A stretch of DNA of 64,000 nucleotides from an uncultured Methanosarcinaceae archaeon (GCA_963847185.1 CAWJYV010000004.1:64001-128000), one strand, 5' to 3'; numbered from the stretch's first letter, positions 4,083 to 48,600 are shown. The notes: a model not told the origin generated them from the sequence alone. A program made the numbers and translations.

Positions 4083-5180
4083 ATGATTTTTGATCCTATT
4101 AAAGTCTGCAATCTGGAACTCCAGAATCGCTTTGTAAGGTCTGCAACACATGAATTTATGGCTGAAGAAGATGGGACGCCAACCACCAGACTCGGAGATC
4201 TCTATGAAGAGCTTGCAAAAAACGAAATAGGGTTGATTGTAACAGGTTATTCTTATGTTCTTTCAGGAGGGCAAAGCGACAGATTACAGCAGGGCGTTTA
4301 TGATGACCGTTTTATAGAGCCATACAGGAAAATTACCGGGAGAGTGCACAGGCATAGAAGCAAGATCGTTCTTCAGATCGTACATGGAGGAAGGCAGGCG
4401 AATGTTTCGGATGAATATCCGGTTCCGATTGCTCCATCTGCGGTTAAAAACGGACGTTCAGCAGTGGTTCCCAGAGAAATGACTGAAACGGAAATTCTGG
4501 AAATGATTGAAGCCTTTACTCTGGCAGCTGTGCGGGCAAAAACTGCAGGTTTTGATGGGGTTCAGCTCCATTGCGCTCATGGTTTCCTGCTAAGCAGCTT
4601 TATTTCGCCTTATACTAATGTCCGGACAGATCGCTGGGGAGGTTCCATAGAAAATCGGACCCGAATTGTTACGGAAATTGTCAGGCGCATTAAAGAGGAA
4701 ACTGGAGGTGACTTTCCCATTCTTGTTAAAATGAATGCAACAGACGGTTTTCCACCCAGTTCCTCAAAAGCAGGGCTGGGACTCGATGCCCCTGAAAGCA
4801 TAGAAATTGCCAAGCTTCTTGAAAAGGCAGGGGTCTGTGCAATCGAGGTCAGCGGAGGGATAGGTGAAGCTGGAGGGGTGACTATCAGGACTGCGATCAA
4901 CTCTCCTTCAAAAGAGGCGTATTTTAAGAACTACTCAAAAATGATAAAAGCCGCCGTGAATATTCCCGTAATTCTGGTAGGAGGAATCCGATCTCTTTAT
5001 GTTATGGGATGCCTTCTTGAAAACGGATGTGCAGATCTGATTTCCATGAGCAGGGTGTTTATCAGTGAACCTGATTTTATCCCAAAACTTAAGTCTGGAA
5101 TAACAAAAAAAGCGAGATGTGTATCCTGCAACCTTTGTTTTGATCCCAAGGGGATCAGGTGCAATTTCGAGTTTGACTGA
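4083..5180 (+). CDS. NADH:flavin oxidoreductase (old yellow enzyme family)
   Basis: MIFDPIKV..L.NRFVRSATHE, QIVHGGRQ, AGFDGVQLHCAHGFLLSSFISP..N.RTD.WGGS.ENR, C-terminal CVSCNLC; ATG 4083 is the likely start. Confidence 0.93.
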   Translation: MIFDPIKVCNLELQNRFVRSATHEFMAEEDGTPTTRLGDLYEELAKNEIGLIVTGYSYVLSGGQSDRLQQGVYDDRFIEPYRKITGRVHRHRSKIVLQIVHGGRQANVSDEYPVPIAPSAVKNGRSAVVPREMTETEILEMIEAFTLAAVRAKTAGFDGVQLHCAHGFLLSSFISPYTNVRTDRWGGSIENRTRIVTEIVRRIKEETGGDFPILVKMNATDGFPPSSSKAGLGLDAPESIEIAKLLEKAGVCAIEVSGGIGEAGGVTIRTAINSPSKEAYFKNYSKMIKAAVNIPVILVGGIRSLYVMGCLLENGCADLISMSRVFISEPDFIPKLKSGITKKARCVSCNLCFDPKGIRCNFEFD

Positions 5181-8240: not shown

Positions 8241-8387
8241 AATAAGCTCTACAATAAAATCCGTTTTTATTTCTATTTCAAAAAATCTATGATACGGGTA
8301 AGTGTCAATTACTAACATTTTTATAGGAAAAAGAAACTATATATGAAATACTGTATGAAAAATTTTATGAAGATTAATGGAAATAAG

Positions 8388-11285
8388 ATGAAAACTAAAC
8401 AAATAATTTATTCGATAGCGGCAGCATTAGCAACTTTTATTTTATTTTTAATTTTGGTTTCATCTACGGTATCGGCATCTACAACTCCTCTTGATCAAAA
8501 TACTTCTCTGTCTATTGCAGGCCCATATGTAGGCTCCCTTGTATATGACTCTCCGGCATCTGGAGTAAATAATCAATACGGTCTCGATACAGGAAAACAG
8601 TCCAGAGTAAGACAAAATGGATATATTAATGCAGTACAATTTGCAATCGCTAATGCAAATAAAGTTAACAGGTTCAATGTTTGCATTTGGAGAAGAAACG
8701 ATGATACTGGTAAATATAATCTGGTTGCAAAAAGTAACAATCTAACTCCTGATATTACTACTAGCGGGATCCAAAATATCTTTCTTTCCACTCCATTATA
8801 TGCACATGAAGGTGACTATATTGGATGGGAAGCAAATTCAGTAGACACTACGAATCTAATTATGACATCTAAAGTTCCAGCAGGAACAACTGATGCTAAA
8901 ATTCATTGGGGTACAGCTCGTACTTTTTCAGTTGGCGATGAATACGACTTTGTAAACTCTTCAACTTATCATGTTTCTAATAAAACATATCGTTTAAACA
9001 TATTTATGAGTACAGTAGACACGGCTTTCATAGGGGATTCAGTGGTATCCGGTAGACCCGTACATACATCCTATGTTGATCCTGCTGCTTATTACAATCC
9101 CTGGTCATCAATGTCTTATTGGTGGGGCCTTTACTCAGGTAGGACATATCAAAACCTCGGATGGAGAGGACAAACTACCGCTGAAATCAAAAACAGATTC
9201 TACGCAGATGCAATTGCTTTACATCCGTCAAATGTCTTCATTCAAGGAGGGTTAAACGATTGGGTATATTCGATTAATAAGACGACAACTCTTTCAAATT
9301 TGTGCTGGATGGTAAACGAAACGGTAGCTAATGGATCACACGCCTATCTATGTGAGATTCCCCCGTCTACTGGAAGCGGGAATGCTATAAATTGGGCAGA
9401 CTGGCAATGGATAAATAACCAATTGAAAACGATTTATGCAAATAATTCAAGTGTTACTTTAATTCCAATTAGAAATTATGTTGGACAGAAATATGCTTCT
9501 GGTCCGGCTGGCAACCTATGGGAAATAAATACTGCCTATGATGGTGGAGATGGCCTACACTATAACATTGTAGGGTATCAAAAATTTGCATCTGTCATTT
9601 ACAATTATCATTCAAATAGATATACAGCAGATGTGATAAATGGAACTGCACCACTGTCAGTTCACTTTTCTATACTGAGCCCTACAATATTAAACTCATC
9701 TCTTCCAACTCTGGCAGGGTGGAGCAGGTCAGCAGCAATCGAACCCTCAACAAAAAAATCTTTAAGTGAGTACATTTACATTCCAAAATATCCAGATATG
9801 AAAGCCGATAGTAGCGACGTTAGGTTCTTCCTAAGTAACGGAACGATTCTTCCTTCTCAGTATCAATCAACCTCATCAGGAGTATATTTCATTTACAGAT
9901 ATGCTCATCCAGCAAACGCTCCAGTATATTGTGCGTGGGGGAATAACAGTGCTCTCAATTTGACCCAGGGTACATATTTCGAGGATGGGGAAAGCACTGC
10001 AAACTGGACAAATATGTCAGGCGGTATGATCGAATCATCAGCGGCGAGAGTATACAGTGGAAATCATTCGTTCAAATATACAGACCTATCTGCCACTACA
10101 TATAATGATGACTGCACATTTATGTTACCTGTAAAGACAACTAATGCAACAGTAGAATGGTATGCGAACCCAAGTCAAAACAACACATACTCACGGCTTA
10201 CTATTTTAGATGGAAATGCGTCTCTTAAGAAAGGACCTTGGACCGTATTCGGAGATAATGGACAGATTCAATATTGGGATGGAACAAGCTATAAAAATAT
10301 AAAAAGATATTCAGCAGGCAACTGGTATCGTTTCAAACTGGTGGTGAAATCTGGAACTAAATATGATTTGTACGTGGATGATACCCTAGTAGCAAGCGAC
10401 ATCAATACATTAAATCCAGCTACAGCCTATGATAGAGTAGTGCTTTTTGGATATAATGTCGCTGGCAGTTCATGTTATTATGATAATATTAATATAACAG
10501 TACCGGTAGGCTCAGTTGCAATCACTTCTAATATTTCATATTTTACAATTCCATCAACATCTCTTCCAAATATATATTCGTGGAACTTTGGAGACGGGAT
10601 TAATTCAACCGAGCAAAATCCAACGCATACTTACTCTACAGCAGGAAACTATACAGTTAGTCTGACTGTAAAGAATGCAGTGGGCAATAATGCGCTAACG
10701 AAATATGAGTATATACGCGTAGCTCCTAGTTTTACTCATGTTACATATTTCGAGGATGGGGAGAGCACTGCAAACTGGACAAATATGTCAGGCGGTATGA
10801 TCGGATCATCAGCGGCGAGAGTATACAGTGGAAATCATTCGTTCAAATATACAGACCTATCTGCCACTACATATAATGATGACTGCACATTTATGTTGCC
10901 TGTAAAGACAACTAATGCAACGGTAGAATGGTATGCGAACCCAAGTCAAAACAACACATACTCACGGCTTACTATTTTAGATGGAAATGCGTCTCTTAAG
11001 AAAGGACCTTGGACCGTATTCGGAAATAATGGACAGATTCAATATTGGGACGGGACAAGCTATAAAAATATAAAAAGATATTCAGCAGGCAACTGGTATC
11101 ATTTCAAACTGGTGGTGAAATCTGGAACTAAATATGATTTGTACGTGGATGATACCCTAGTAGCAAGCGATATCAACACATTAAATCCAGCTACAGCCTA
11201 TGATAGAGTAGTAATTTTTGGATTCAATGTCGCTGGCAGTTCATGTTATTATGATAATATTAATATAACAGTACCGAGAGGCTAA
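8388..11285 (+). CDS. Cell-surface protein with SGNH/GDSL hydrolase domain, split PKD domain and two copies of the beta-rich domain
   Basis: Signal peptide MKTKQII...; FIGDS (block I), G.RGQTT, GGLND (block III), DGLH (block V); WNFGDG...EQNPTHTY. Confidence 0.88.
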   Translation: MKTKQIIYSIAAALATFILFLILVSSTVSASTTPLDQNTSLSIAGPYVGSLVYDSPASGVNNQYGLDTGKQSRVRQNGYINAVQFAIANANKVNRFNVCIWRRNDDTGKYNLVAKSNNLTPDITTSGIQNIFLSTPLYAHEGDYIGWEANSVDTTNLIMTSKVPAGTTDAKIHWGTARTFSVGDEYDFVNSSTYHVSNKTYRLNIFMSTVDTAFIGDSVVSGRPVHTSYVDPAAYYNPWSSMSYWWGLYSGRTYQNLGWRGQTTAEIKNRFYADAIALHPSNVFIQGGLNDWVYSINKTTTLSNLCWMVNETVANGSHAYLCEIPPSTGSGNAINWADWQWINNQLKTIYANNSSVTLIPIRNYVGQKYASGPAGNLWEINTAYDGGDGLHYNIVGYQKFASVIYNYHSNRYTADVINGTAPLSVHFSILSPTILNSSLPTLAGWSRSAAIEPSTKKSLSEYIYIPKYPDMKADSSDVRFFLSNGTILPSQYQSTSSGVYFIYRYAHPANAPVYCAWGNNSALNLTQGTYFEDGESTANWTNMSGGMIESSAARVYSGNHSFKYTDLSATTYNDDCTFMLPVKTTNATVEWYANPSQNNTYSRLTILDGNASLKKGPWTVFGDNGQIQYWDGTSYKNIKRYSAGNWYRFKLVVKSGTKYDLYVDDTLVASDINTLNPATAYDRVVLFGYNVAGSSCYYDNINITVPVGSVAITSNISYFTIPSTSLPNIYSWNFGDGINSTEQNPTHTYSTAGNYTVSLTVKNAVGNNALTKYEYIRVAPSFTHVTYFEDGESTANWTNMSGGMIGSSAARVYSGNHSFKYTDLSATTYNDDCTFMLPVKTTNATVEWYANPSQNNTYSRLTILDGNASLKKGPWTVFGNNGQIQYWDGTSYKNIKRYSAGNWYHFKLVVKSGTKYDLYVDDTLVASDINTLNPATAYDRVVIFGFNVAGSSCYYDNINITVPRG

Positions 11286-40701: not shown

Positions 40702-41270
40702 GTCATACTCACCCGTAAGTTTTTACCACATAATGATAGATGGAATTGTATAAAATGATTCTTAACTGATATTTAAGCGGAAAGTTAAAGAGGCTGATTA
40801 TAAAATTATACTCTTTTTTCTTGACACTTCTTTGATGGCTTTTGAATGTATTTCATTTAACCTGTTATTTCATTTAACCTATTTATCCTGCTTGATAAAG
40901 TCTACTATAAGTGTTTTGAATGAAAAGAAGAACTAGAGATCCTGTAGCAATATTAGGTTTAAGCCTAATGCTATCATTTCTTGCTGATCTAAAGAGCAGT
41001 TTTCTCTGCAGGTGACTTTTACATCTAAGTTCCAGATATTTATTCGTTAACTTATTGAGCTATTTCCCAGAAAAGATATTAATCATAATTATTAATTATA
41101 GATACTGCAAAAGTAAAATAATATAAAGTAATATATTAAAAATTGAAACCAAATATAAAGTGAGAAAATGAAGGAAGACAATCTGAAGCTAAGGTAACCT
41201 GCTATAAAAATGTATAGAAGCCAGCCAAGGCAAACAGAACCGAAATTAAACTGTCTAAAGAGGGATTTCA

Positions 41271-41612
41271 ATTCGTGAAGTAAGAGATTATATCCAGGAT
41301 ATCTATAATGCAATGGAAGCGGCAGAAGAATTTGTCAGCAACTGGACATTTGAGAAGTTTGCTGCAGATCGCAAGACACAGTTTGCAGTAATTCGGGCTC
41401 TGGAGCTTATTGGCGAAGCAGCAGAAAATATCTCCTGCGAAGTGCGTGAAAAGTATCCATCTGTCCCATGGAAAAACCTGGAAAGAATGAAGGATGAGTT
41501 AATCCACACTCACTTCGGCATCAACCTGAAAGTTGCCTGGATGTCCGTAAAAGAAGGCATATTCGAAGCGAAACCGGATATAAGATATATTCTGAATGAG
41601 ATGAGAAATTAG
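41271..41612 (+). CDS. DUF86/HepT-like HEPN protein, orphan; apparent ATT start
   Basis: (I)REVRDYIQDIYNAM...FAVIRALELIGEAA...YPSVPWK...MKDELIHTHFGIN; GAGGG RBS 6 nt before ATT; first ATG is 41313. Confidence 0.75.
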   Translation: MREVRDYIQDIYNAMEAAEEFVSNWTFEKFAADRKTQFAVIRALELIGEAAENISCEVREKYPSVPWKNLERMKDELIHTHFGINLKVAWMSVKEGIFEAKPDIRYILNEMRN

Positions 41613-41867
41613 AGCTATTCTGTTTATTGAAACCAAGAATAAATTCCACTCTATTTTCTCATTTAGGTTCTATTCTCCCATTTAGGCTCTATTTTCTATA
41701 AGTGTGATTTGTTAGCATAAATTTCTCAGCCAGACTAGATTTCCTAAAAACTAACAGCTGCTTACTCAAGTTACAGGCAGAAATTCAAATAAATGATTTA
41801 ATTGGTATAAAAAATATCAGATAGTGTTCCCAATTTATTGATTAGGAATTTTAAACATTATGATTCC

Positions 41868-42036
41868 GGCTCTTCGCTGTCTTGTATGGATTTAAAATAA
41901 TTGCCTGGTTGAAAAATGACTGTTTCGGATAGAGAAACCTCGATCTTGAATATGTTTTTTCCAGATAAATTGTGTTCAAACATTACCCATATTTAGAAAG
42001 CAATTATAAATTATCCACTCGAAATAGCGAAAAGCC
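41868..42036. mobile_element. MITE-like element, family A
   Basis: GGCTCTTCGCTG...CACTCGAAATAGCGAAAAGCC; similar to 791-964. Confidence 0.75.
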
Positions 42037-42622
42037 TTAAATATTTGTGTTAGGAGATCAAAAAAGCAGATTATTAACTAATTCACAGAATAAAGTATAA
42101 CAGAAGGCTCTTTAGCTAAAAAAAGTATGTAGGGGAGCCGCAGTGATAATTCAAGAAAATATCACGCTTTAGAATTGTAATGTGTACAATAGCAGTTTTA
42201 GGTCCTGATACAGACGCTTGAAGCATTTTTCTTCAAATAGGATAAAATACTAGCTTTAATATGGTAGGACTTAAACAGTGGAACTGAAAACAACAGAATC
42301 TACAGGATTCTTTCTTATCGGCTACAGGGTAGCAAAGTCTGTTGGATCGTTTCCTTTAATTGATCAAATCTGAAAAAAGCTCTTAATGCTATTGTTTTTC
42401 AGTTAAATGAATTATTTTTATGAATAAAATTAGGTGAGACTCATTCGCCAGCCTTTTTTGGCGAATTCCTGTCAATTTCAGGAAAGGATCTACAAAACAG
42501 ATCAGACTTTAATATGATTAAGTTCTCCTGTTTCTGTAGTCCGCCGAAAGGCTGTACGAATGTGTCTTCATGGATTTTACGTTTTATGGAGTGTCTAAGA
42601 CAGATTATATTCTATTCTTTCA

Positions 42623-42654
42623 CTGTTTAGATAGCTAATAATTTATCTAAACAG
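42623..42654 (-). terminator. Hairpin downstream of peptide gene 3
   Basis: Perfect 11-bp stem CTGTTTAGATA/TATCTAAACAG. Confidence 0.5.
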
Positions 42655-42716
42655 CTTTTAATCCATGATGCGATTATTCAGCGGTCGGCGATTAGGATCA
42701 CTGCCGAAGCAATCGA

Positions 42717-42954
42717 TTAATCCCACCAGCCGCCGCGGCCTCTGCGACCTATGGCGCAGGCTCTACGAATTACGGTTGTTGCGCAAAGCCCTCGGTCCAC
42801 AGCCTCCGCCACAGCCACCGTCAAAGCCTCCCCAGCCTCCGCCGCAGCCTCCACCGCAGCCTCCAAAGCCACCGCAGCCTCCGCCACCAAAGCCAAATCC
42901 ACGATCAAACCCACGTCCTCTACCAAATCCACCAAATCCACCAAATCCGAACAT
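42717..42954 (-). CDS. Gly/Cys/Phe-rich peptide 3 (63 aa to TAG at 42763, or longer ending GGWWD via a 1-nt frameshift)
   Basis: GGGGGTAA RBS; MFGFGGFGGFGRGRG...GGCGGFGGCGGGCGGGWGG...; adjacent frame reads LCATTVIRRACAIGRRGRGGWWD*. Confidence 0.7.
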
Positions 42955-43756
42955 TTATTTTACCCCCATGTTGGTATATTATTTTAGATTTTTTTGTGTT
43001 TTTTTTCATTCTCGTATTTTCTACTTTTTGCATACAGGAGAAGACAAAACTTTTAAGATTAGAGTATGAAGTGGGTAAGAGTATACAATTACTCCAGGGT
43101 ATGCACTGAGCATACGATCCTCTAATCAAATTTTTTATCCACCCCTCAAATTGATAGTTACTTCTGGCAATTGTATTTGGAAACTATTCTAATCACTTCC
43201 TTCCGTCTGGAGAGAACAGATTCAAGTTTAACTGCCAGAAGTATAAACTAATATATAATTCTTGGATATATAAAATTAATAGAATATCTTTTACTTAATA
43301 CAAATAGGCTTTGAAAAACTGGGCACACATAACGTTAAAAAAGCGAAGTTACTTTTATATTTATTAGTAGATTTAAATCCTTTAAGTTATCCGCTAAAAT
43401 GAGGAGTTTTAGTCCATAATTCACGTTTTTACGCAAAAAAAGACCTCAATAATATAAATAAGACTTTTATGAGATGAATAAACCCCTTTTTCCAATTAAA
43501 GCCAATTAAAGGGTTCAAAATATACACATTTAGTTAAAAAAAGTTGTATTACTCTTTGATCACTCTTTCGAGATCTAAACTTCATGACTTTAGTATTTTT
43601 TTTAAAATTAAATTATTCGTATAAAAAGTAAAGTAACATAAAAGAGAACACATAGCCGTCAATCAAATGAGGTAATTCACCATATATTATCTCCCTTGCC
43701 TTGAAAAGACAGCTATGGTGTACTTCTTTATTTCAATACGTGGTGATCCTTTCATA

Positions 43757-43794
43757 ATAGCTGTTAAAAGCCATTGAAATCCATTAACAGCTAT
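43757..43794 (-). terminator. Hairpin downstream of peptide gene 2
   Basis: ATAGCTGTTAA...TTAACAGCTAT inverted repeat; duplicated near 44090-44127. Confidence 0.55.
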
Positions 43795-43803
43795 TAGCTA
43801 TAA

Positions 43804-43899
43804 TTACCACCAGTTGTTCCAGCCGCCACAGCCGCAGCGGTTCCAGCCGCAGCCGCCACCGCAGCCGCCCCAGCGTCGGAATCCAAAACCCCAAAACAT
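43804..43899 (-). CDS. Gly/Cys/Trp-rich peptide 2 (31 aa: MFWGFGFRRWGGCGGGCGWNRCGCGGWNNWW)
   Basis: GGAGGTAAACACA-ATG; GC-rich coding island in AT-rich DNA; paralog of 44136-44222. Confidence 0.8.
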   Translation of the reverse strand: MFWGFGFRRWGGCGGGCGWNRCGCGGWNNWW

Positions 43900-44135
43900 T
43901 GTGTTTACCTCCATAGATTACTAAATGGTTTTATTTACCTGTATTATTGGTTTATGTTACTTAAACCAATATAAAAGAAAACACCTAGCCATCAATTCAA
44001 ATGAGATAGTTCACCATAAATTATCTCCCTCGCCTTGAAAAGACGGCTACGATGATATTTCTTGTTCCAATACTGGTGGTTCTTTGAAGATAGCTGTTAA
44101 AAGCCATTGAAAGCCATTAACAGCTATTAGATGAA

Positions 44136-44222
44136 TTACCACCAGTCGCAGCCGCCACAGCCGCCCCAGCGGCCACAGCCGCCACAGCCGCCCCAGCGTC
44201 GGAATCTCCAACCCCAAAACAT
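44136..44222 (-). CDS. Gly/Cys/Trp-rich peptide 1 (28 aa: MFWGWRFRRWGGCGGCGRWGGCGGCDWW)
   Basis: Identical RBS/spacer GGAGGTAAACACA-ATG; length differs from the paralog by whole codons. Confidence 0.8.
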   Translation of the reverse strand: MFWGWRFRRWGGCGGCGRWGGCGGCDWW

Positions 44223-44956
44223 TGTGTTTACCTCCAGTGATTAATGTGTAGTTTATTTACTCTGTATTATTGGTTTTATCCGTTTACTCCCTTTACAGAA
44301 CAGGGAAGATGAACTTTCCGAGTTTAGATTGCTTAATTTTTGAATCAAACTCTTCTCAACCTCCCTTATCTGTTTTATGCTCATGGCAACTTATTTGTAA
44401 AAGCTACTTTGTTTATCAATTCTCATTTAGAGTGGAACAAACTTGTTTTTAATGAAACAAACTTGTTTTTAGCTGCACCGAGCATAATTAAAAATTATAC
44501 AAATTATTATATATAAATGCTAGAATAATTCATTCTTATCATTGATAGGCTTGGAAAAATTAGGTAAACCGCCTCGCCAGAGAGCGAATTTACTTTTAAA
44601 CTTAAGTTATAATTTCTAATTTTTTAATGCTCCAACAAGATCAGGATTTTTTTGTCTATAATCCCATGTTAGCCAAAAAATAAAGCTCCTTTAGTAAAAA
44701 TAAAGTACATTTCCCTGATCAAATTCCATTGAAAGTTTTAAAAACTGCTAATTTTGTCGAAAAAATAAAATAACTCTTTTGGTAAAAATATTAAGTAACT
44801 TCACTCTTTTTTTGCGAACAAAAGTTCCTTGCCAAGTATGATATTACGACAATAGATTTTTTTCGACAATAGATTTTTCATTCATACATTGGATAAGAAA
44901 TTCGAAAATTCTTCAAATAATTATGTCCAGATTAATCTGAATGAGAGTTTTTGTTT

Positions 44957-45598
44957 TCAAATCTTCAATATTTTTATTAATTCCTTTGCCCATTTCAGCT
45001 TTTTTTTCTTAATCTGACTAACATCCGGATCTTCAAAATCAAATCCTGCCAGCCTTACGCTTTTACCTCCAAACTCCATTGCCACAAAAGCACACCTGTC
45101 TCCATCACTGAATCCACCGAAATTGTACACTTTATCAAAAGGCTGAGCCTGGGTAGTTGCAATAAAGCGCTTGAAAAGAGGTACATATTTTTCAAGCTTA
45201 TCGATATTATCTCCATGTGCGTGGATCAGGACTAATGAGCCCTTCTCACAGGCATGGATTTCTTTTTCAATATCGGCCTCGGAATTACCGTCAAGGTCGG
45301 TACAGATAACCTCAGGTACACGACCGATATCCATCAGAACGGCAGCTGCTCCATCGGCTGCAATTACCACAAAAGCAGAAAGCTCGATTCCCGAAAGCTC
45401 TTCCCTGAGTTTTGGGGCATTTCCGCATACCAGGACAGGCTTTCCGAAAATTGCGACTTTAAGTTCAGAGAGATTGACAGTATTATCCTCTGTCAGCAGG
45501 CTGGAGAGGAAGCGAGCTGCCTCTTCATCACCTGCACGGTCGAACCCGAAATCCTCAAGGATTCTTTCGTAAATCGGCTCCCAGGCAGCAAAGTCCGT
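44957..45598 (-). CDS. mptE: 6-hydroxymethyl-7,8-dihydropterin pyrophosphokinase MptE (DUF115); apparent ACG start
   Basis: (T)DFAAWEPIYERILEDFGF..D, VCGNAP, IAADGA, TDLDG, HAHGDN, NFGGFSDGDR, KKKKLKWA; AGGTGTGA RBS; in-frame TAA upstream. Confidence 0.88.
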   Translation of the reverse strand, partial: TDFAAWEPIYERILEDFGFDRAGDEEAARFLSSLLTEDNTVNLSELKVAIFGKPVLVCGNAPKLREELSGIELSAFVVIAADGAAAVLMDIGRVPEVICTDLDGNSEADIEKEIHACEKGSLVLIHAHGDNIDKLEKYVPLFKRFIATTQAQPFDKVYNFGGFSDGDRCAFVAMEFGGKSVRLAGFDFEDPDVSQIKKKKLKWAKELIKILKI

Positions 45599-45662
45599 AT
45601 AATCACACCTTTTTCGTTTTTAATTTAAACGCCTATTTCTTATCGCATTTGCTTCTCAGTGC

Positions 45663-48600
45663 TTATTTCTTTGCAATTCCCATCTTCATGGCAATGCCTT
45701 CAACATCCCAGTCCTTTACAAGAGCTCCGGAAATCTCAATGTCGCTGCCAAGTTCAAAGGCATCAGCTCTTACCTCTTCTGCAATCAAGATTTTTAAGGT
45801 CTCGACGAGCTTCAGTACTTTTTCGTCTTCGATCCTGACAGACACACGGATATTTTCATCCACCACAAGGTCAAGTTCCTTCCTCATATCCTGGAGCCTG
45901 CGGATGACTTCTCTTGTATACCCTTCAGCTTCGAGTTCAGGGGTTAAGTTTGCATCCACATAGACAAGGCCTGCATCTGATTCGGCACTGGCTGCGCCTG
46001 CAGGCAGGGTTTCTTTGAAGTTTGCCATTCCTGGAGTAGCTATGGCAGTTGTTCCATCTGCAAGGATTAGTTCGAATTCTCCGGCCTCTTCAAAGGCTCT
46101 CTTTAAAGCAAAGCCGTCGAGCTTCTGCATGGCAGGTATGACTTTTCCTGCATCTTTCTTAAAGACAGGCCCGATCTTACCCGGATCTGGAATAACCTCA
46201 AGCCCAAGTTCTTCCCAGCTCCTACCTACATCTGTCAGGACAATTGCCTTGGAGTTGGTCTGGTCCATAAGAACCGAGCGCAGCTTCTCGACAGCCTTTG
46301 CTGCATCTTCACTAGTTGGAGATATAACTATTCTCGATATAGGCCACCTGAGTTTTCTTCCTGCCTTCTGGCGGGCATTTGAAGCAGCCTCAACAATGGA
46401 ACGGGCAGTGTCCATAGCTGCTTCAAGCTCAGGGTCAAGATAGTTTTCATTGACTTTCGGCCAGTCGCACATGTGGACAGATTCAGGAGCATTCGGGTCT
46501 ACATTCCTGATAAGGTTCTGGTACATCTCTTCAGCTAGGTAGGGCATGAAAGGAGAGATCAGCTTTGTAAGGATCACATAAACCTCGTAAAGTACACAGT
46601 AAGCTGCAAGCTTGTCAGGATCATCTGCTTCTGTCCAGGTCCTTGGGCGGATTAGCTGGATATACCAGCGGGAGAGGTCTTCCAGAGTAAACTCCAGGAC
46701 CTCACGGACCGCTTTGTGCAGCAGGTAACCGTTCATAGCCTCATCTACTGCTTTAACAACGGACTGGGCTCTTGAAAGGATCCACCTGTCTTCCTCACGG
46801 AGGGCATCTTTTACGGAATCAAGATTGACCTTCATGGGGTCGAAATTATCAAGAGCCATATAGGGCAGCGGGAACCTGAAGACGTTCCAGAGGATATTGA
46901 TTGAACGGTGGACGGTTTCCACTTCTTCAAGGTTGAACTTCAGATCTTCCCATGGTGCACTTGAGGAAAGCACATAGGCACGCAGGGTATCTGCCCCGAA
47001 CCTGTCGATAATGTCCAGAGGAGAAATAACATTCCCAAGGCTCTTGGACATTTTCTTTCCGCCTGCATCCAGAGTGAAGCCGTGCATGAGTACACTCTTA
47101 TATGGAGCCCTGCCAAAGCCAACCATGCTTGCTCCTAGCTGGGAATAGAACCATCCGCGAGTCTGGTCATGTCCTTCAGTTATGAAGTCAGCTGGCCACC
47201 ACTCATCAAACTGCTCCCTTGTCTGCGGGAACTTAAGGGTTGCCCAGGAAGCAACTGCCGAGTCAAACCAGACATCAAAGACGTCTTCAACACGCTTTTT
47301 CTCTCCCCCGCACTCACATGGGATAGTAACTTTGTCCACATAAGGACGGTGAAGCTCAATATCGCCGAAAGCCCCTGATTTTTCCAGCAGCTCGGCTTTT
47401 GTCCCTATTACCTCAAGCTTTCCGCATTTATGGCATTTCCACACAGGGATAGGAATTCCCCAGTAGCGTTGCCTGGAAATACACCAGTCCCGAGCGCCTT
47501 CAACCCAGGTTCTGAACCTTGCCGAGCCTGCCCAGTCAGGGTACCAGTCAACAGCATCGATTTCCTCAAGCATCTTGTCCTTGATCTCGGTAACTTTGAG
47601 GAACCACTGTTCGGTTGCAAGATAAATGATTGGAGTCTTGCAGCGCCAGCAGTGCCCGTATCTGTGGGTTACTGTCCCTTCAGCAAGGAGTCTGTTTCTC
47701 TCCTTCAGGTCTTCAATGACAATTGGATTTGCTTCCCTGACATTCTTTCCCGCGTATTCTCCGGCTTCTTCGGTATACGCCCCATTTGAGCCAACAGGGC
47801 AGAGAATAGGAAGCTTGTGCTTTACACCAAGATTAAAGTCGTCCATACCGTGCCCTGGTGCAATATGTACACAGCCTGTGTTTTCTACGGTTACGAAATC
47901 TGCAAGATAAACTCCGTGCTTTATATTTTTCTGGACGGGTACCAGATCTCCAACAGGACTTTCGTACTCGAGTTTTGTGAGCTCTTCCCCGAGCATAGTC
48001 TCAAGGACTTCATAGTCAACATACCTGCCCTGTTTAAGGACATTTTTGATCAGGTCTGTGGCAGCAATGAGAATTTCTTCCGAGCCGTCCTGCCTGACTG
48101 CCCTGAATTTTGAGTATTCGAAACCAGGGTGTACAGCTACAGCCACGTTTGCGGGAATTGTCCAGGGAGTTGTTGTCCAGATGACAATGAAGGTATTTTC
48201 TTCCCCTTTTATCTTGAATTTCACATAGATCGAAGGGTCGGTTCTCTCGGCATATTCAACTTCTGAGTCTGCAATTGCAGTTTCACAGCGCGGGCACCAG
48301 TTGACCGAACGTTTGCCCACATCCAGAAGATCTTTCTCATTTGCCTGTTTAAGGGTCCACCAGGCAGCTTCGATGTAATCATCCTTTAAAGTCATATAGG
48401 GTTCTGACCATCTCATCCAGACACCAAGCCTCTGGAACTGTTCGGTCATTGCCTGTTTCTGGGTAATAGCAAATTCTTTACATTTCTCTATGAAATTCTC
48501 TACCCCAAAGCTCTCGATATCCTTTTTGGATTTGAAACCGAGCAAACCTTCAACTTTGACCTCTATTGGCAGGCCGTGCATATCCCAGCCAGGGCGTTCA

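Follow-up and report, generated by a model that had tools for sequence, protein, structure and literature searches.

A multicopy family of Gly/Cys-rich micro-proteins with its own structured leader RNA in Methanosarcina

Three Gly/Cys-rich ORFs on the minus strand of the window, the 64,000-nucleotide stretch of DNA from an uncultured Methanosarcinaceae archaeon analysed here (GCA_963847185.1, CAWJYV010000004.1:64001-128000), are genuine genes of a multigene family that is under purifying selection and present in RNA libraries. The genes are preceded by a leader RNA that is new and tied to the peptide family, though it is reused before other micro-peptides in two species. Our best guess is that the products are disordered thiol/aromatic peptides that bind metal or iron sulfide. 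Taken as a whole, the account of real genes, a genus-confined family, a cassette with its own leader and a putative metal/FeS-type role of the peptides seems to us quite possible, if somewhat short of an even chance.

Results

The gene cluster

The three minus-strand ORFs described in the first-pass annotation of this DNA are all present where it placed them (Table 1). They form islands of 60–69% G+C in surroundings of mostly 26–39% G+C, and each has the strong ribosome binding site (GGAGGT or GGGGGT, 7–8 nt 5' of the ATG) and the 3' hairpin that had been described. Compared with its orthologue in the nearest relative (L002), gene 1 gives a dN/dS of 0.20; gene 2 differs from its orthologue there by a single residue. 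Genes 1 and 2 are covered by a tandem duplication of about 330 bp, as reported before, with repeat copies spaced 323–334 bp. Each copy holds the SD, a W-type ORF, the hairpin and about 130 nt of 3' flank, and the repeat pieces (135, 77 and 57 nt) are 79–89% identical. An RNA-library contig in one run joins 44276 to 43963 across 10 letters of other sequence; we read it as a single-copy form of the duplication.

Table 1. Features of the peptide gene cluster, in positions of the window
Feature	Position	Strand	Details
mptE-like gene (6-hydroxymethylpterin diphosphokinase)	44960–45619	-	Outside the system, positional marker; Pfam PF01973, E 2.2e-25
Promoter of unit 1 (putative)	44510–44538	-	TAAGAATGAATTATTCTAGCATTTATATA; AGAAT-N5-ATTCT palindrome abutting the TATA box on its 5' side; own-genome pattern scan
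5' leader of gene 1	44223–44487	-	About 265 nt; P1 arms about 44471–44487 and 44375–44391; exact 5' end inferred
Gene 1, W-type micro-protein	44136–44222	-	28 aa, MFWGWRFRRWGGCGGCGRWGGCGGCDWW; ORF; L002 orthologue; RNA-library contigs overlap
3' hairpin of gene 1	44090–44127	-	-19.1 kcal/mol, z -5.28, 0/200 shuffles as good
Tandem duplication	43663–44276	-	Two copies, about 43663–43953 and 43997–44276
Gene 2 SD	about 43907–43912	-	GGAGGT
Gene 2, W-type micro-protein	43804–43899	-	31 aa, MFWGFGFRRWGGCGGGCGWNRCGCGGWNNWW; ORF; RNA-library contig spans ORF
3' hairpin of gene 2	43755–43796	-	-15.2 kcal/mol, z -3.07, 2/200 shuffles as good
Spacer 5' of unit-3 promoter	43298–43660	-	Conserved among paralogous units
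Promoter of unit 3 (putative)	43267–43297	-	TAAGTAAAAGATATTCTATTAATTTTATATA; same element in F-type units of many species
5' leader of gene 3	42955–43247	-	About 293 nt; P1 arms 43223–43243 and 43159–43179; inverted repeat I3
Gene 3, F-type	42763–42954	-	63 aa in the present assembly, MFGFGGFGG..., out-of-frame tail ..GPRALRNNRNS and stop
Gene 3, frame-shifted continuation	42717–42790	-	Family-typical C-terminus ..CATTVIRRACAIGRRGRGGWWD and stop; break at about 42786–42790
3' hairpin of gene 3	42622–42655	-	-14.4 kcal/mol, z -2.94, 2/200 shuffles as good

The third ORF does start at 42954, but compared with its paralogues it is truncated: a frameshift, missed in the first-pass annotation, ends it early. 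An intact paralogue (C1:35405-35665) reads ..GPRGACVTTVIRRVCAIGG.. within a single frame, and the alignment with the paralogues has a 2-nt gap at the frameshift site. Both of the run X2 RNA-library contigs that cross the site (2/2) carry two extra letters at the break. In the RNA-library contigs, the length differences listed for the gene 3 repeats are 3 nt each, except for the 2-nt difference at the frameshift site; those listed for leader 1 and the inter-gene spacer are 1 nt. The first 75 nt or so of gene 3 share 98–100% identity with two paralogues, whereas the leader shares only 77–79%.

Evidence that the ORFs are protein-coding genes

ORFs of this composition are not a chance product. A filter of G+C+W ≥55% and at least three Cys returned six ORFs from the real genome, none from the reversed genome and none from each of three block-shuffled genomes. 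A six-frame scan of the own genome gave 11 Gly/Cys-rich segments, among them eight leaderless family ORFs and two signal-peptide relatives. Across Methanosarcina, loci of other species included, there are at least 49 distinct leaderless family peptides, and GGAGGT is located 7–8 nt 5' of the ATG in nearly all of their genes. The diversifying paralogous family without leader peptides that had been proposed from the three ORFs is thus much larger than could be seen from them. The ratio dN/dS was defined in 19 of 21 hand-picked orthologue/paralogue codon alignments, with a median of 0.20 (range 0.03–0.87) and values below 0.5 in 16 of the 19 pairs. A nucleotide-level count of substitutions and indels over 258 pairs was dropped, as spurious low-complexity DNA alignments dominated it.

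Contigs from RNA libraries overlap the units in all four runs (four studies) and touch all three units, which agrees with transcription of the cluster; such contigs are no strict proof of it, and their depths cannot rank expression. One (42931–43209) runs from the leader into the start of gene 3, another (43700–43913) contains the entire gene 2 ORF, and unit 1 is overlapped by contigs at 44208–44472 and 44252–44472. For 43270–43617 and 44488–45000 no contig was found in the four runs, an absence that does not imply silence. The RNA-library contigs of the family come from sediment, soil and bioreactor samples.

These data bear on whether the ORFs are protein genes at all, rather than Cys/Gly/Trp-sensing uORFs or attenuators, GC-rich non-coding RNA repeats, or by-products of Pro/Gln-rich ORFs on the opposite strand. 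Tandem Trp codons and Cys-rich short ORFs serve as attenuators in bacteria and lend this idea a precedent. Polycysteine ORFs of mycobacteria are a reported example (bioRxiv 10.1101/834739). There are also long ORFs on the plus strand that overlap the repeats, one of them at 42665–43069 (134 aa). However, no regulated gene lies downstream in the same transcript and each unit closes with a hairpin. The amino acid sequence is under purifying selection, with non-repetitive motifs kept across species; SD and ATG are conserved solely on the minus strand, and promoter and leader have the same orientation. We regard a non-protein role as extremely unlikely.

Composition and predicted structure of the peptides

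W-type members, which include genes 1 and 2, have 28–37 residues and usually end in WW. F-type members, which include gene 3, have 60–90 residues, with an N-terminus rich in FG/RG followed by Cys-Gly repeats; they also have a conserved [CV]-[IV]-T-[AT]-[VI]-R-x-C segment and a GWW(D) end. The family consists of 38.6% G, 12.4% C, 10.7% F, 8.9% R and 7.9% W (F+W 18.6%), and the repeat number differs between copies. The median net charge is +2.5 for short forms and +3 for long forms, with 4 of 18 short forms lacking a net positive charge. In all 49 peptides the repeat region follows the Met directly (MF, MG, MW or MC). There are 2–12 Cys per peptide, and CC occurs 18 times. Among 271 consecutive Cys–Cys spacings, a spacing of 2 (CxC) is the commonest (54), a spacing of 7 is found 38 times and a spacing of 3 only 13 times; the Cys at every third residue described in the first-pass annotation is therefore a property of gene 1 and not of the family. 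A GGX/polyglycine-II periodicity was considered and dropped, the lag-3 enrichment of non-Gly residues being just 1.13-fold.

The family proteins are predicted to be intrinsically disordered. The AlphaFold2 model of an F-type peptide has a mean pLDDT of 42, with a single low-confidence helix across the conserved segment, and that of a W-type peptide has a mean pLDDT of 49.5 and lacks secondary structure. Pfam gave nothing above cut-off for the family peptides; NCBIfam gave no family for seven of eight and a single irrelevant sub-threshold match for the eighth, so there is no match to the bacteriocin-precursor models of those libraries. A PDB profile search returned no match and the ESM Atlas no usable one. 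The few database relatives are annotated only as 'hypothetical protein'. On a public metagenome contig (P0039), an F-type module follows a Sec-type signal peptide. Longer fused forms of the family were not found, which is weak evidence. No account of the family turned up in the literature we searched; supplementary sORF tables from Ribo-seq and proteomics work on M. mazei, outside that search, may already include members.

Composition alone could suggest RiPP precursors of the thiazole/oxazole or thioamide type, modified in trans by an enzyme encoded elsewhere. The core-like sequence is rich in Gly and Cys, gene 1 has CGGC repeats with Cys at every third residue, as in heterocycloanthracin/sonorensin and microcin B17-type (TOMM) peptides, and the genome has one YcaO gene. 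The parallel with heterocycloanthracin and sonorensin, which had been drawn for the cluster, is not supported: a leader peptide is absent from all 49 peptides, neither NCBIfam nor Pfam gave a match, few Cys spacings in the family equal 3, and in contrast to TOMM systems there is no adjacent cyclodehydratase or dehydrogenase. The sole YcaO gene is on contig C7, whereas the family genes are on C1, C4, C8 and C10, and methanogens use YcaO for the thioglycine of McrA. RiPP precursors are thus very improbable, and the peptides would be end products.

Promoter and leader RNA

Each gene, or tandem pair of genes, forms a cassette of its own, made up of a half-palindrome plus TATA promoter, a leader, a strong SD, the micro-ORF and a 3' hairpin. 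The motif ATTCT-N4-10-T[AT]TATA[AT] is found no more than 520 nt upstream of 44 of the 59 Gly/Cys-rich ORFs examined. We infer promoter function of this palindrome–TATA element from the TATA consensus. The leaders are 200–360 nt long and structured, opening with a long 5'-terminal stem, P1. Leader 1 folds with -28.1 kcal/mol (z -3.27, 0/200 shuffles as good) and matches the covariance model of the leader, R1, weakly at 44303–44461 (22.7 bits, E about 1e-3 in 3.5 kb). The gene 3 leader (fold z -3.24) matches R1 with 100.7 bits at 43039–43247; in its P2, GAGGGG pairs with CUUCUCC, and in its P3, GAUUAGAG pairs with CUCUAAUC. The separate TATA promoters and the long structured 5' leaders are not mentioned in the first-pass annotation.

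A hand-drawn leader structure was tested on 21 sequences, in a cleaner alignment than the full one of 450 columns; on the latter, misalignment of the W-type rows left RNAalifold with just a 6-pair helix. In the hand-drawn structure 85.7% of the cells are paired, against 36–48% with the partners slid, and double changes are present in 16 of 31 leader pairs, a figure reached by 1 of 500 shuffles. P1 is 91% paired, with a compensatory change in 8 of 14 pairs. P2 and P3 are conserved, with covariation not above controls (128 of 500 shuffles reach their paired percentage). A switch that sequesters the SD, with P2 as an SD-mimic and an anti-SD, stays an idea only because the P2/P3 covariation does not exceed controls. 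The leader would probably set mRNA stability, access to the ribosome site, or both.

In the own genome R1 has five matches, every one directly upstream of family genes. Rfam models gave nothing in 41000–46000 but a chance-level plant miRNA model (E 0.54). The same promoter type in the own genome also precedes other tiny ORFs that are aromatic-rich but Gly/Cys-poor, such as MFAYDFFVNFALIK.. and MGFFSLYYNKII..; in two other species, ORFs of this kind come after the leader as well.

Distribution and genomic setting

R1 matches were found in 26 of 34 other Methanosarcina species sampled, the leader being missing from the search results in the other 8/34, and in 0 of 116 genomes from 15 other genera of the family Methanosarcinaceae. 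The carriers of the peptide family include complete Methanosarcina genomes. A profile HMM of the F-type, run over 151 genomes of the order, did not recover the own-genome copies and its negatives are therefore worthless; it was replaced by a back-translated WGGCGGW pattern together with the RNA model. The single match of that pattern outside the genus (G166, L056) is antisense of a TTVPP-repeat protein and a false positive. As far as searched, the family is confined to Methanosarcina.

The site of the cluster, next to mptE/ileS, is conserved: mptE adjoins the peptide cluster at loci of at least 13 other Methanosarcina genomes. This position had been missed in the first-pass annotation. The flanks of the cluster are the mptE-like gene, IleRS and HepT; the paralogues have transposases and an integrase as neighbours. 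The spacer 5' of the unit-3 promoter was probably carried along in segmental duplications: its part at 43290–43600 is 72–88% identical across four paralogous units, with 1–8 gap columns per ~310 nt. Around the cluster and its paralogues, none of the family copies has a metal-related gene, regulator or transporter linked to it. The earlier statement that the window encodes no modifying enzyme or exporter holds for the surroundings of the cluster and extends to those of the paralogues; no exporter, immunity or processing gene adjoins either.

This setting weighs on the idea of leaderless 'archaeocin'-like peptides for antimicrobial competition, cationic and rich in Trp, Arg, Cys and Gly, released onto the membranes or envelopes of competitors. 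Class IId leaderless bacteriocins have dedicated export and immunity genes at the locus and a compact helical fold. The family resembles these and Trp/Arg antimicrobials in having no leader and in its small, mostly cationic, Trp-rich (also Phe-rich and Cys-containing) products of multi-copy, diversifying genes. Strong diversification, tandem duplications, a variable copy number and one broken copy would suit such peptides, as would restriction to one genus and a promoter (elsewhere also a leader) that drives tandem ORFs of other small peptides. The existence of signal-peptide forms means that the modules could work outside the cell. In contrast to class IId bacteriocins, export and immunity genes are absent beside the family genes, the peptides are predicted to be disordered (pLDDT 42 and 49.5) with no amphipathic helical fold, and their Gly content is extreme and their host archaeal. 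Moreover, 4 of the 18 short forms are not cationic, and dN/dS is mostly well below 1, where an arms race would predict positive selection. We consider the antimicrobial explanation unlikely, though it has real points in its favour.

Discussion

On the preferred reading, family members would be flexible, mostly cationic peptides, rich in thiolate and aromatic residues, that bind metal or iron sulfide; they would work in the cytoplasm and, for the relatives with a signal peptide, outside the cell. We put this forward as possible but rather doubtful. The peptides share with metallothioneins a small size, a high Cys content in which CxC is the commonest spacing, and the lack of a stable fold without metal. 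Metallothioneins, however, have few or no aromatic residues; the 18.6% F+W of the family is atypical of them, which counts against a metal role. The 39% Gly and the absence of any Pfam family at cut-off are further differences.

A second comparison is the tail of IssA, a thioferrate storage protein. This tail is described as cationic and rich in aromatic residues and glycine, with Trp/Gly/Arg repeats that are conserved and a single Cys, and wrapping of anionic thioferrate is the role proposed for it (PMC5524996). The likeness is one of composition only: both are predicted to be disordered, rich in Gly, Trp and Arg, and built on a repeating pattern. The differences are that the family peptides stand alone, without the NifX-like domain (IPR003731/PF02579), and contain 12.4% Cys against the one Cys given for the tail. 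In the own genome the NifX/IssA-domain (PF02579) proteins are separate genes, two short ones (108 and about 124 aa) without a tail and a third match (a 218-aa open frame, 27.2 bits) likewise with none. The short forms that are not cationic (4 of 18) weaken a purely electrostatic model like that of the IssA tail.

Closer in taxonomy are the small Cys-motif proteins of M. mazei, which share the genus, small size and several cysteines with the family; some of them were shown to bind zinc (PMC12704099). They have CxxC-x17-CxxC or ferredoxin-like motifs and predicted folds, unlike the family here, and in the main text of that paper the words glycine and tryptophan do not occur, and Gly/Trp-rich peptides are not mentioned.

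Two further points are set against metal binding. The aromatic-rich, Gly/Cys-poor ORFs share the promoter or leader, and therefore the theme common to the cassettes may be aromatic micro-peptides rather than thiols. The patchiness of the leader, the variable copy number and the frameshifted copy fit accessory or arms-race genes better than genes of core metal homeostasis.

The aromatic theme leads to self-assembling low-complexity proteins of the 'sticker-and-spacer' kind, which would form condensates, gels or an envelope or aggregate matrix, with Cys cross-links dependent on redox state or metal. In this concept aromatic residues and Arg are the stickers and Gly is the spacer, and the family has 39% Gly, 19% F+W and 9% Arg, FG/RG-rich N-termini in the F-type, predicted disorder and a repeat number that varies among copies. 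The other aromatic-rich micro-ORFs that share the promoter, and in two species the leader, and the secreted relatives with the same repeats also fit. W-type peptides of 28–37 residues are, however, short for a scaffold, and conservation of the C-terminus and of a non-repetitive segment suggests a specific interaction. Assembly of this kind seems to us improbable, if still deserving weight.

A more speculative form of metal or iron-sulfide binding is that genus-only cassettes with a shared promoter and leader drive several unrelated families of aromatic-rich peptides, and that the Gly/Cys/Trp/Phe members are mineral-interface peptides that bind Fe-, Ni- or Co-sulfide surfaces or clusters. That they would be released or displayed is suggested by the relatives with signal peptides. 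We hold this to be quite a long shot. If true, the peptides would open the Fe, S and trace metals of sulfide minerals to this genus, or put it in electrical contact with such minerals, and would thereby be an archaeal equivalent, made of protein, of metallophores or conductive appendages.

Methanosarcina, the leading genetic model among methanogens and a major environmental source of methane, has in this family a set of multi-copy genes for which we found no Pfam or NCBIfam family, solved relative or paper, and which are called 'hypothetical protein' where annotated at all. The apparent reuse of the promoter type, and in two species of the leader, for other micro-peptides points to an unrecognised layer of small proteins. 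If genetically tractable strains are among the complete genomes that carry the family, the question would be directly testable with existing methods. Should the peptides prove to bind metals or iron sulfide, the family would have a bearing on the supply of Fe, S, Ni and Co in methanogens, from acquisition to storage.

The window genes

When the minus strand of 42000-45500 was read and its ORFs were listed, the three small genes proposed in the first-pass annotation were recovered at their positions (see the table). As described there, they are GC-rich islands (60-69% G+C) in surroundings of mostly 26-39% G+C. The strong ribosome-binding sites are also present, GGAGGT in genes 1 and 2 and GGGGGT in gene 3, each 7-8 nt ahead of the ATG. 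The hairpins downstream of genes 1, 2 and 3 fold at -19.1, -15.2 and -14.4 kcal/mol, with 0/200, 2/200 and 2/200 shuffles folding equally well. The tandem duplication of about 330 bp that holds genes 1 and 2 is seen as pieces of 135, 77 and 57 nt with 79-89% identity at a spacing of 323-334 bp. The composition of these Gly/Cys/Trp-rich ORFs is far from chance. Six ORFs of the genome reach 55% G+C+W (Gly, Cys, Trp) with at least three Cys; the same filter returns none in the reversed genome and none in each of three block-shuffled copies.

The ribosome site and coding start of gene 3 are nearly identical to those of two paralogues, the adjoining leader being just 77-79% identical; synonymous sites are conserved in the coding start as well. 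This could stem from gene conversion or from constraint on the RNA. Past the far end of the cluster, the AT-rich region is delimited by a gene for a HepT-like ribonuclease toxin.

Coordinates of the micro-protein genes and associated features (unprefixed positions, window; C numbers, contigs of the same genome, G000; L numbers, loci fetched from relatives)
Feature	Position	Strand	Details
Gene 1	44136-44222	minus	28 aa; ORF listing of 42000-45500
Gene 2	43804-43899	minus	31 aa, counted from the ATG after the ribosome site
Gene 3	42763-42954	minus	63 aa; ORF listing of 42000-45500
Gene 3 ribosome site and first ~75 coding nt	42880-42975		98-100% identical to two paralogues
HepT-like toxin gene	41313-41609	plus	Pfam PF01934, E 9e-19
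RNA-library contig	42931-43209		Gene 3 leader and first 24 coding nt; 4 differences/279 nt
RNA-library contig	42528-42780		3' part of unit 3
RNA-library contig	43700-43913		Whole gene 2 and its hairpin
RNA-library contigs	44208-44279, 44252-44472		Gene 1 start and gene 1 leader
Leaderless paralogues	C1:35405, C1:37936, C1:180296, C4:45340, C10:710248		Six-frame scan
Sec-type signal-peptide proteins with W-type-like repeats	C8:75495-75860, C8:76863-77270	minus	Six-frame scan
Second tandem micro-ORF family	C1:31777-32500, C8:332977-333800	plus	30-33 aa; 2 and 3 copies
YVTN-type repeat protein	C1:28560-30517	plus	Secreted beta-propeller
R1 match and aromatic-rich ORFs	L081 (genome G031) ~4567-4747		
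R1 match and aromatic-rich ORFs	L082 (genome G037) ~8247-8409		

Words of the stretch are present in 12 RNA runs from 8 studies. Four runs from four studies were compared in detail and all four hold assembled contigs on the units (promoter, leader, ORF and hairpin), in keeping with the proposed genes; these contigs report presence only and say nothing of strand, ends or level, and carry-over of DNA is formally possible. Length differences inside the gene 3 repeats are of 3 nt, except for one of 2 nt at a frameshift site; those in the gene 1 leader and in the spacer that separates genes 1 and 2 are of 1 nt.

Relative to the intact paralogue at C1:35405, gene 3 is FRAMESHIFTED. The paralogue carries ..GGCGGGCGPRGACVTTVIRRVCAIGG.. 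within a single frame; in the window the matching residues, ..CATTVIRRACAIGRRGRGGWWD*, lie in a different frame that extends to 42717, and the alignment places a 2-nt gap at ~42786-42790. Both contigs of one RNA run (X2) that cross this site have two extra letters. As they are just ~91-93% identical to the window, they may originate in a paralogue or another strain. The break read here may be genuine or may come from the assembly.

Paralogues and genomic position

With looser criteria, six-frame scanning of the 4.04-Mb assembly gave 11 Gly/Cys-rich segments: the window genes, five further leaderless paralogues, two signal-peptide proteins and one unrelated Cys-rich protein. The proposed paralogous family thus stands, and is larger, with eight leaderless copies in this genome and 49 distinct leaderless peptides from loci of the genus. 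The paralogues' neighbours are IS-type transposases and an integrase; no enzyme or transporter adjoins any paralogue in the neighbourhoods inspected in this genome. The two signal-peptide proteins are adjacent and have a common C-terminus, SCNDVLIAALxNSPFGIGGAGFFDGFDDIF; the repeats of one are of GGC/DWNDGW type. A rhodanese-like ORF, assigned by our reading of the sequence and not by a family scan, is close to this pair.

An mptE-like gene (Pfam PF01973) adjoins the window cluster, and the same arrangement is found in at least 13 other genomes and three named Methanosarcina records. This conserved neighbour indicates that the window holds the ancestral locus, the remaining copies being dispersed duplicates. 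In six loci of other species (L018, L004, L028, L037, L062 and L087), the peptide clusters also contain incomplete duplicates of the mptE-like gene's 3' part (~50-60% identity), apparently left over from segmental duplications by which the arrays arose.

Conservation and coding evidence

Relatives were sampled rather than searched exhaustively. In this sample, matches to the locus DNA are present in 14/18 further genomes of the genus and absent from all 12 genomes of other genera; the gene 3 unit has a match in 31/58 other species of the genus. Scanning the fetched loci gave 59 distinct Gly/Cys-rich ORFs, among them the 49 leaderless family peptides. The W-type (genes 1 and 2) is short, 28-37 aa (e.g. 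MWFGNCGWGGCGGWGG...), usually with a WW end. The F-type (gene 3) is longer, 60-90 aa, with an FG/RG-rich start followed by Cys-Gly repeats and a GWW(D) end; it contains a conserved segment free of repeats (..CCITAVRACKIK.., ..ACVTTVIRRVC.. or ..FFNIRGCVxEKC..).

The ribosome site and ATG are conserved across the orthologous loci, GGAGGT lying 7-8 nt ahead of the ATG in nearly all. Of 21 orthologue or paralogue pairs picked by hand, 19 gave a defined dN/dS, which ranged from 0.03 to 0.87 (median 0.20; below 0.5 in 16/19). Because motifs, starts and stops are conserved and selection is purifying, these comparisons show the family ORFs to be, in all probability, protein-coding genes. The long Pro/Gln-rich ORFs of the plus strand are a mirror image of the repeats, with neither conserved motifs, start/stop nor purifying selection, and were rejected. 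Three loci of other Methanosarcina species (L012, L034 and L039) encode further secreted Gly/Tyr/Cys-rich proteins that end ..CGYPCGLGMNYPFYPYYPPINII[VL], with an ATTCT..TATA-like element ~460 nt upstream.

Searching 5.8 billion proteins with a single sequence yielded two relatives and a profile search 46, none with a Pfam domain. The few named ones are each titled 'hypothetical protein', and those named by organism are all Methanosarcina. When 1.84 billion cluster representatives were searched exhaustively with HMMER, eight relatives were returned, all of 45-76 aa. Pfam, NCBIfam, PDB and the ESM Atlas gave no match for the family, and no description of it was found in the literature, the M. 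mazei supplementary sORF lists lying outside that search. The family is outside every known family tested; only its general kind, small, Cys-rich, low-complexity proteins, is familiar.

Promoter and leader RNA

Ahead of the ATG, at a distance of 200-360 nt, is a conserved element, TAAG..ATTCTA-N-TTTATATA, which in many species is a palindrome, AGAAT-N5-ATTCT; the looser form ATTCT-N4-10-T[AT]TATA[AT] is upstream of 44 of the 59 ORFs. The conserved, structured region between this element and the ATG opens with a long stem, P1. The arms of P1 vary among lineages and keep their complementarity (UUUCUGGCAAUU with AAUUGCCAGAAG, UUCCUGAUAAC with GUUAUCAGGGG, GUACUUUCAUGAC with GUCGUGAAAGUAC). In an alignment of 21 sequences, 85.7% of cells are paired, against 36-48% when the partners are slid, and both sides change in 16/31 pairs, a value reached by 1/500 shuffles; within P1 the paired share is 91%, with compensatory change at 8 of the 14 pairs. 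The leader has two more conserved helices, P2 (GGGGAG with CUUCUCC, Shine-Dalgarno-like and anti-Shine-Dalgarno-like elements) and P3 (GAUUAGAG with CUCUAAUC). Their covariation is not above controls, and a ribosome-site switch in the leader therefore stays only an idea.

A covariance model of the leader, R1, has five matches in this genome, every one directly upstream of a family gene. It matches 26/34 other Methanosarcina species and no genome out of 116 from 15 sister genera in the same taxonomic family; its E-values are rough. The gene 3 leader scores 100.7 bits; that of gene 1 is a weak match (22.7 bits) and folds with a 5'-terminal stem (z -3.27). Rfam holds no family matching the leader. 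A reading of the ORFs as regulatory uORFs was rejected, since the transcript holds nothing beyond them and their amino acid sequence is conserved.

In two loci of other species (L081 and L082), R1 matches are followed by different tiny aromatic-rich ORFs, for example MGFFSLYYNKIIAYYESTQLYIWAGWD (two copies) and MGYFNLYFKNVICFYQETIFKFKFCF; promoter and leader thus appear to be reused for unrelated micro-peptides. The second tandem micro-ORF family (e.g. MFAYDFFVNFALIKACKAKVYAEITQVIVG), outside the window and with no Pfam match, is preceded by the TAAG..ATTCTA..TATA promoter type and a ~250-nt 5' region. The gene read by us, without a family scan, as a YVTN-type protein follows the same promoter element, within a 10-kb stretch that also carries FAY micro-ORFs and two F-type genes.

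Protein properties and possible function

The 49 peptides contain 38.6% G, 12.4% C, 10.7% F, 8.9% R and 7.9% W. Median net charge is +2.5 in the short forms (zero or below in 4/18) and +3 in the long forms (0/31). In AlphaFold2 predictions with family alignments, the F-type has a mean pLDDT of 42 and a single low-confidence helix, which covers the conserved segment, and the W-type has a mean pLDDT of 49.5 and no secondary structure; by themselves the proteins are most likely disordered. P0039, a database relative from a public metagenome contig, joins a signal peptide and a Pro/Ala/Thr linker to a complete F-type module. Together with the two C8 signal-peptide proteins, it suggests that the modules can work outside the cell too.

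A parallel with heterocycloanthracin/sonorensin-type RiPP precursors had been drawn from a Cys at every third residue. This is not a family trait: Cys-Cys spacings of 2 (54 times), 7 (38) and 6 (29) are the most frequent, and spacing 3 occurs just 13 times. Leader peptide and family match are also absent and the one YcaO is on another contig, so that the RiPP reading failed on every testable count.

Our best guess, held tentatively, is binding of metals or iron sulfide. Soft metals and FeS species would be natural binding partners of thiol-rich, flexible, mostly cationic peptides in a strict anaerobe. The tail of IssA is described as having Trp/Gly/Arg repeats and is proposed to wrap thioferrate (PMC5524996). 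That description fits the chemical character of the family. The NifX/IssA-domain proteins of this genome have no such tail. Against metal or iron sulfide binding, a linked metal gene is absent, aromatic content is high, some members are uncharged, and the same promoter type (with the leader too in two other species) precedes other aromatic-rich micro-ORFs poor in Gly and Cys. Antimicrobial or competition peptides would account for the diversification, copy-number change and restriction to a single genus, but export and immunity genes are lacking and dN/dS is low, and we consider this role unlikely. Self-assembly as sticker-and-spacer proteins seems an equally doubtful role.

What is new is the family itself, the structured leader RNA dedicated to it, and the way its promoter, and in two species its leader too, appears to serve other micro-peptides as well; also new is that the family is restricted, within the range of our searches, to a single important genus.
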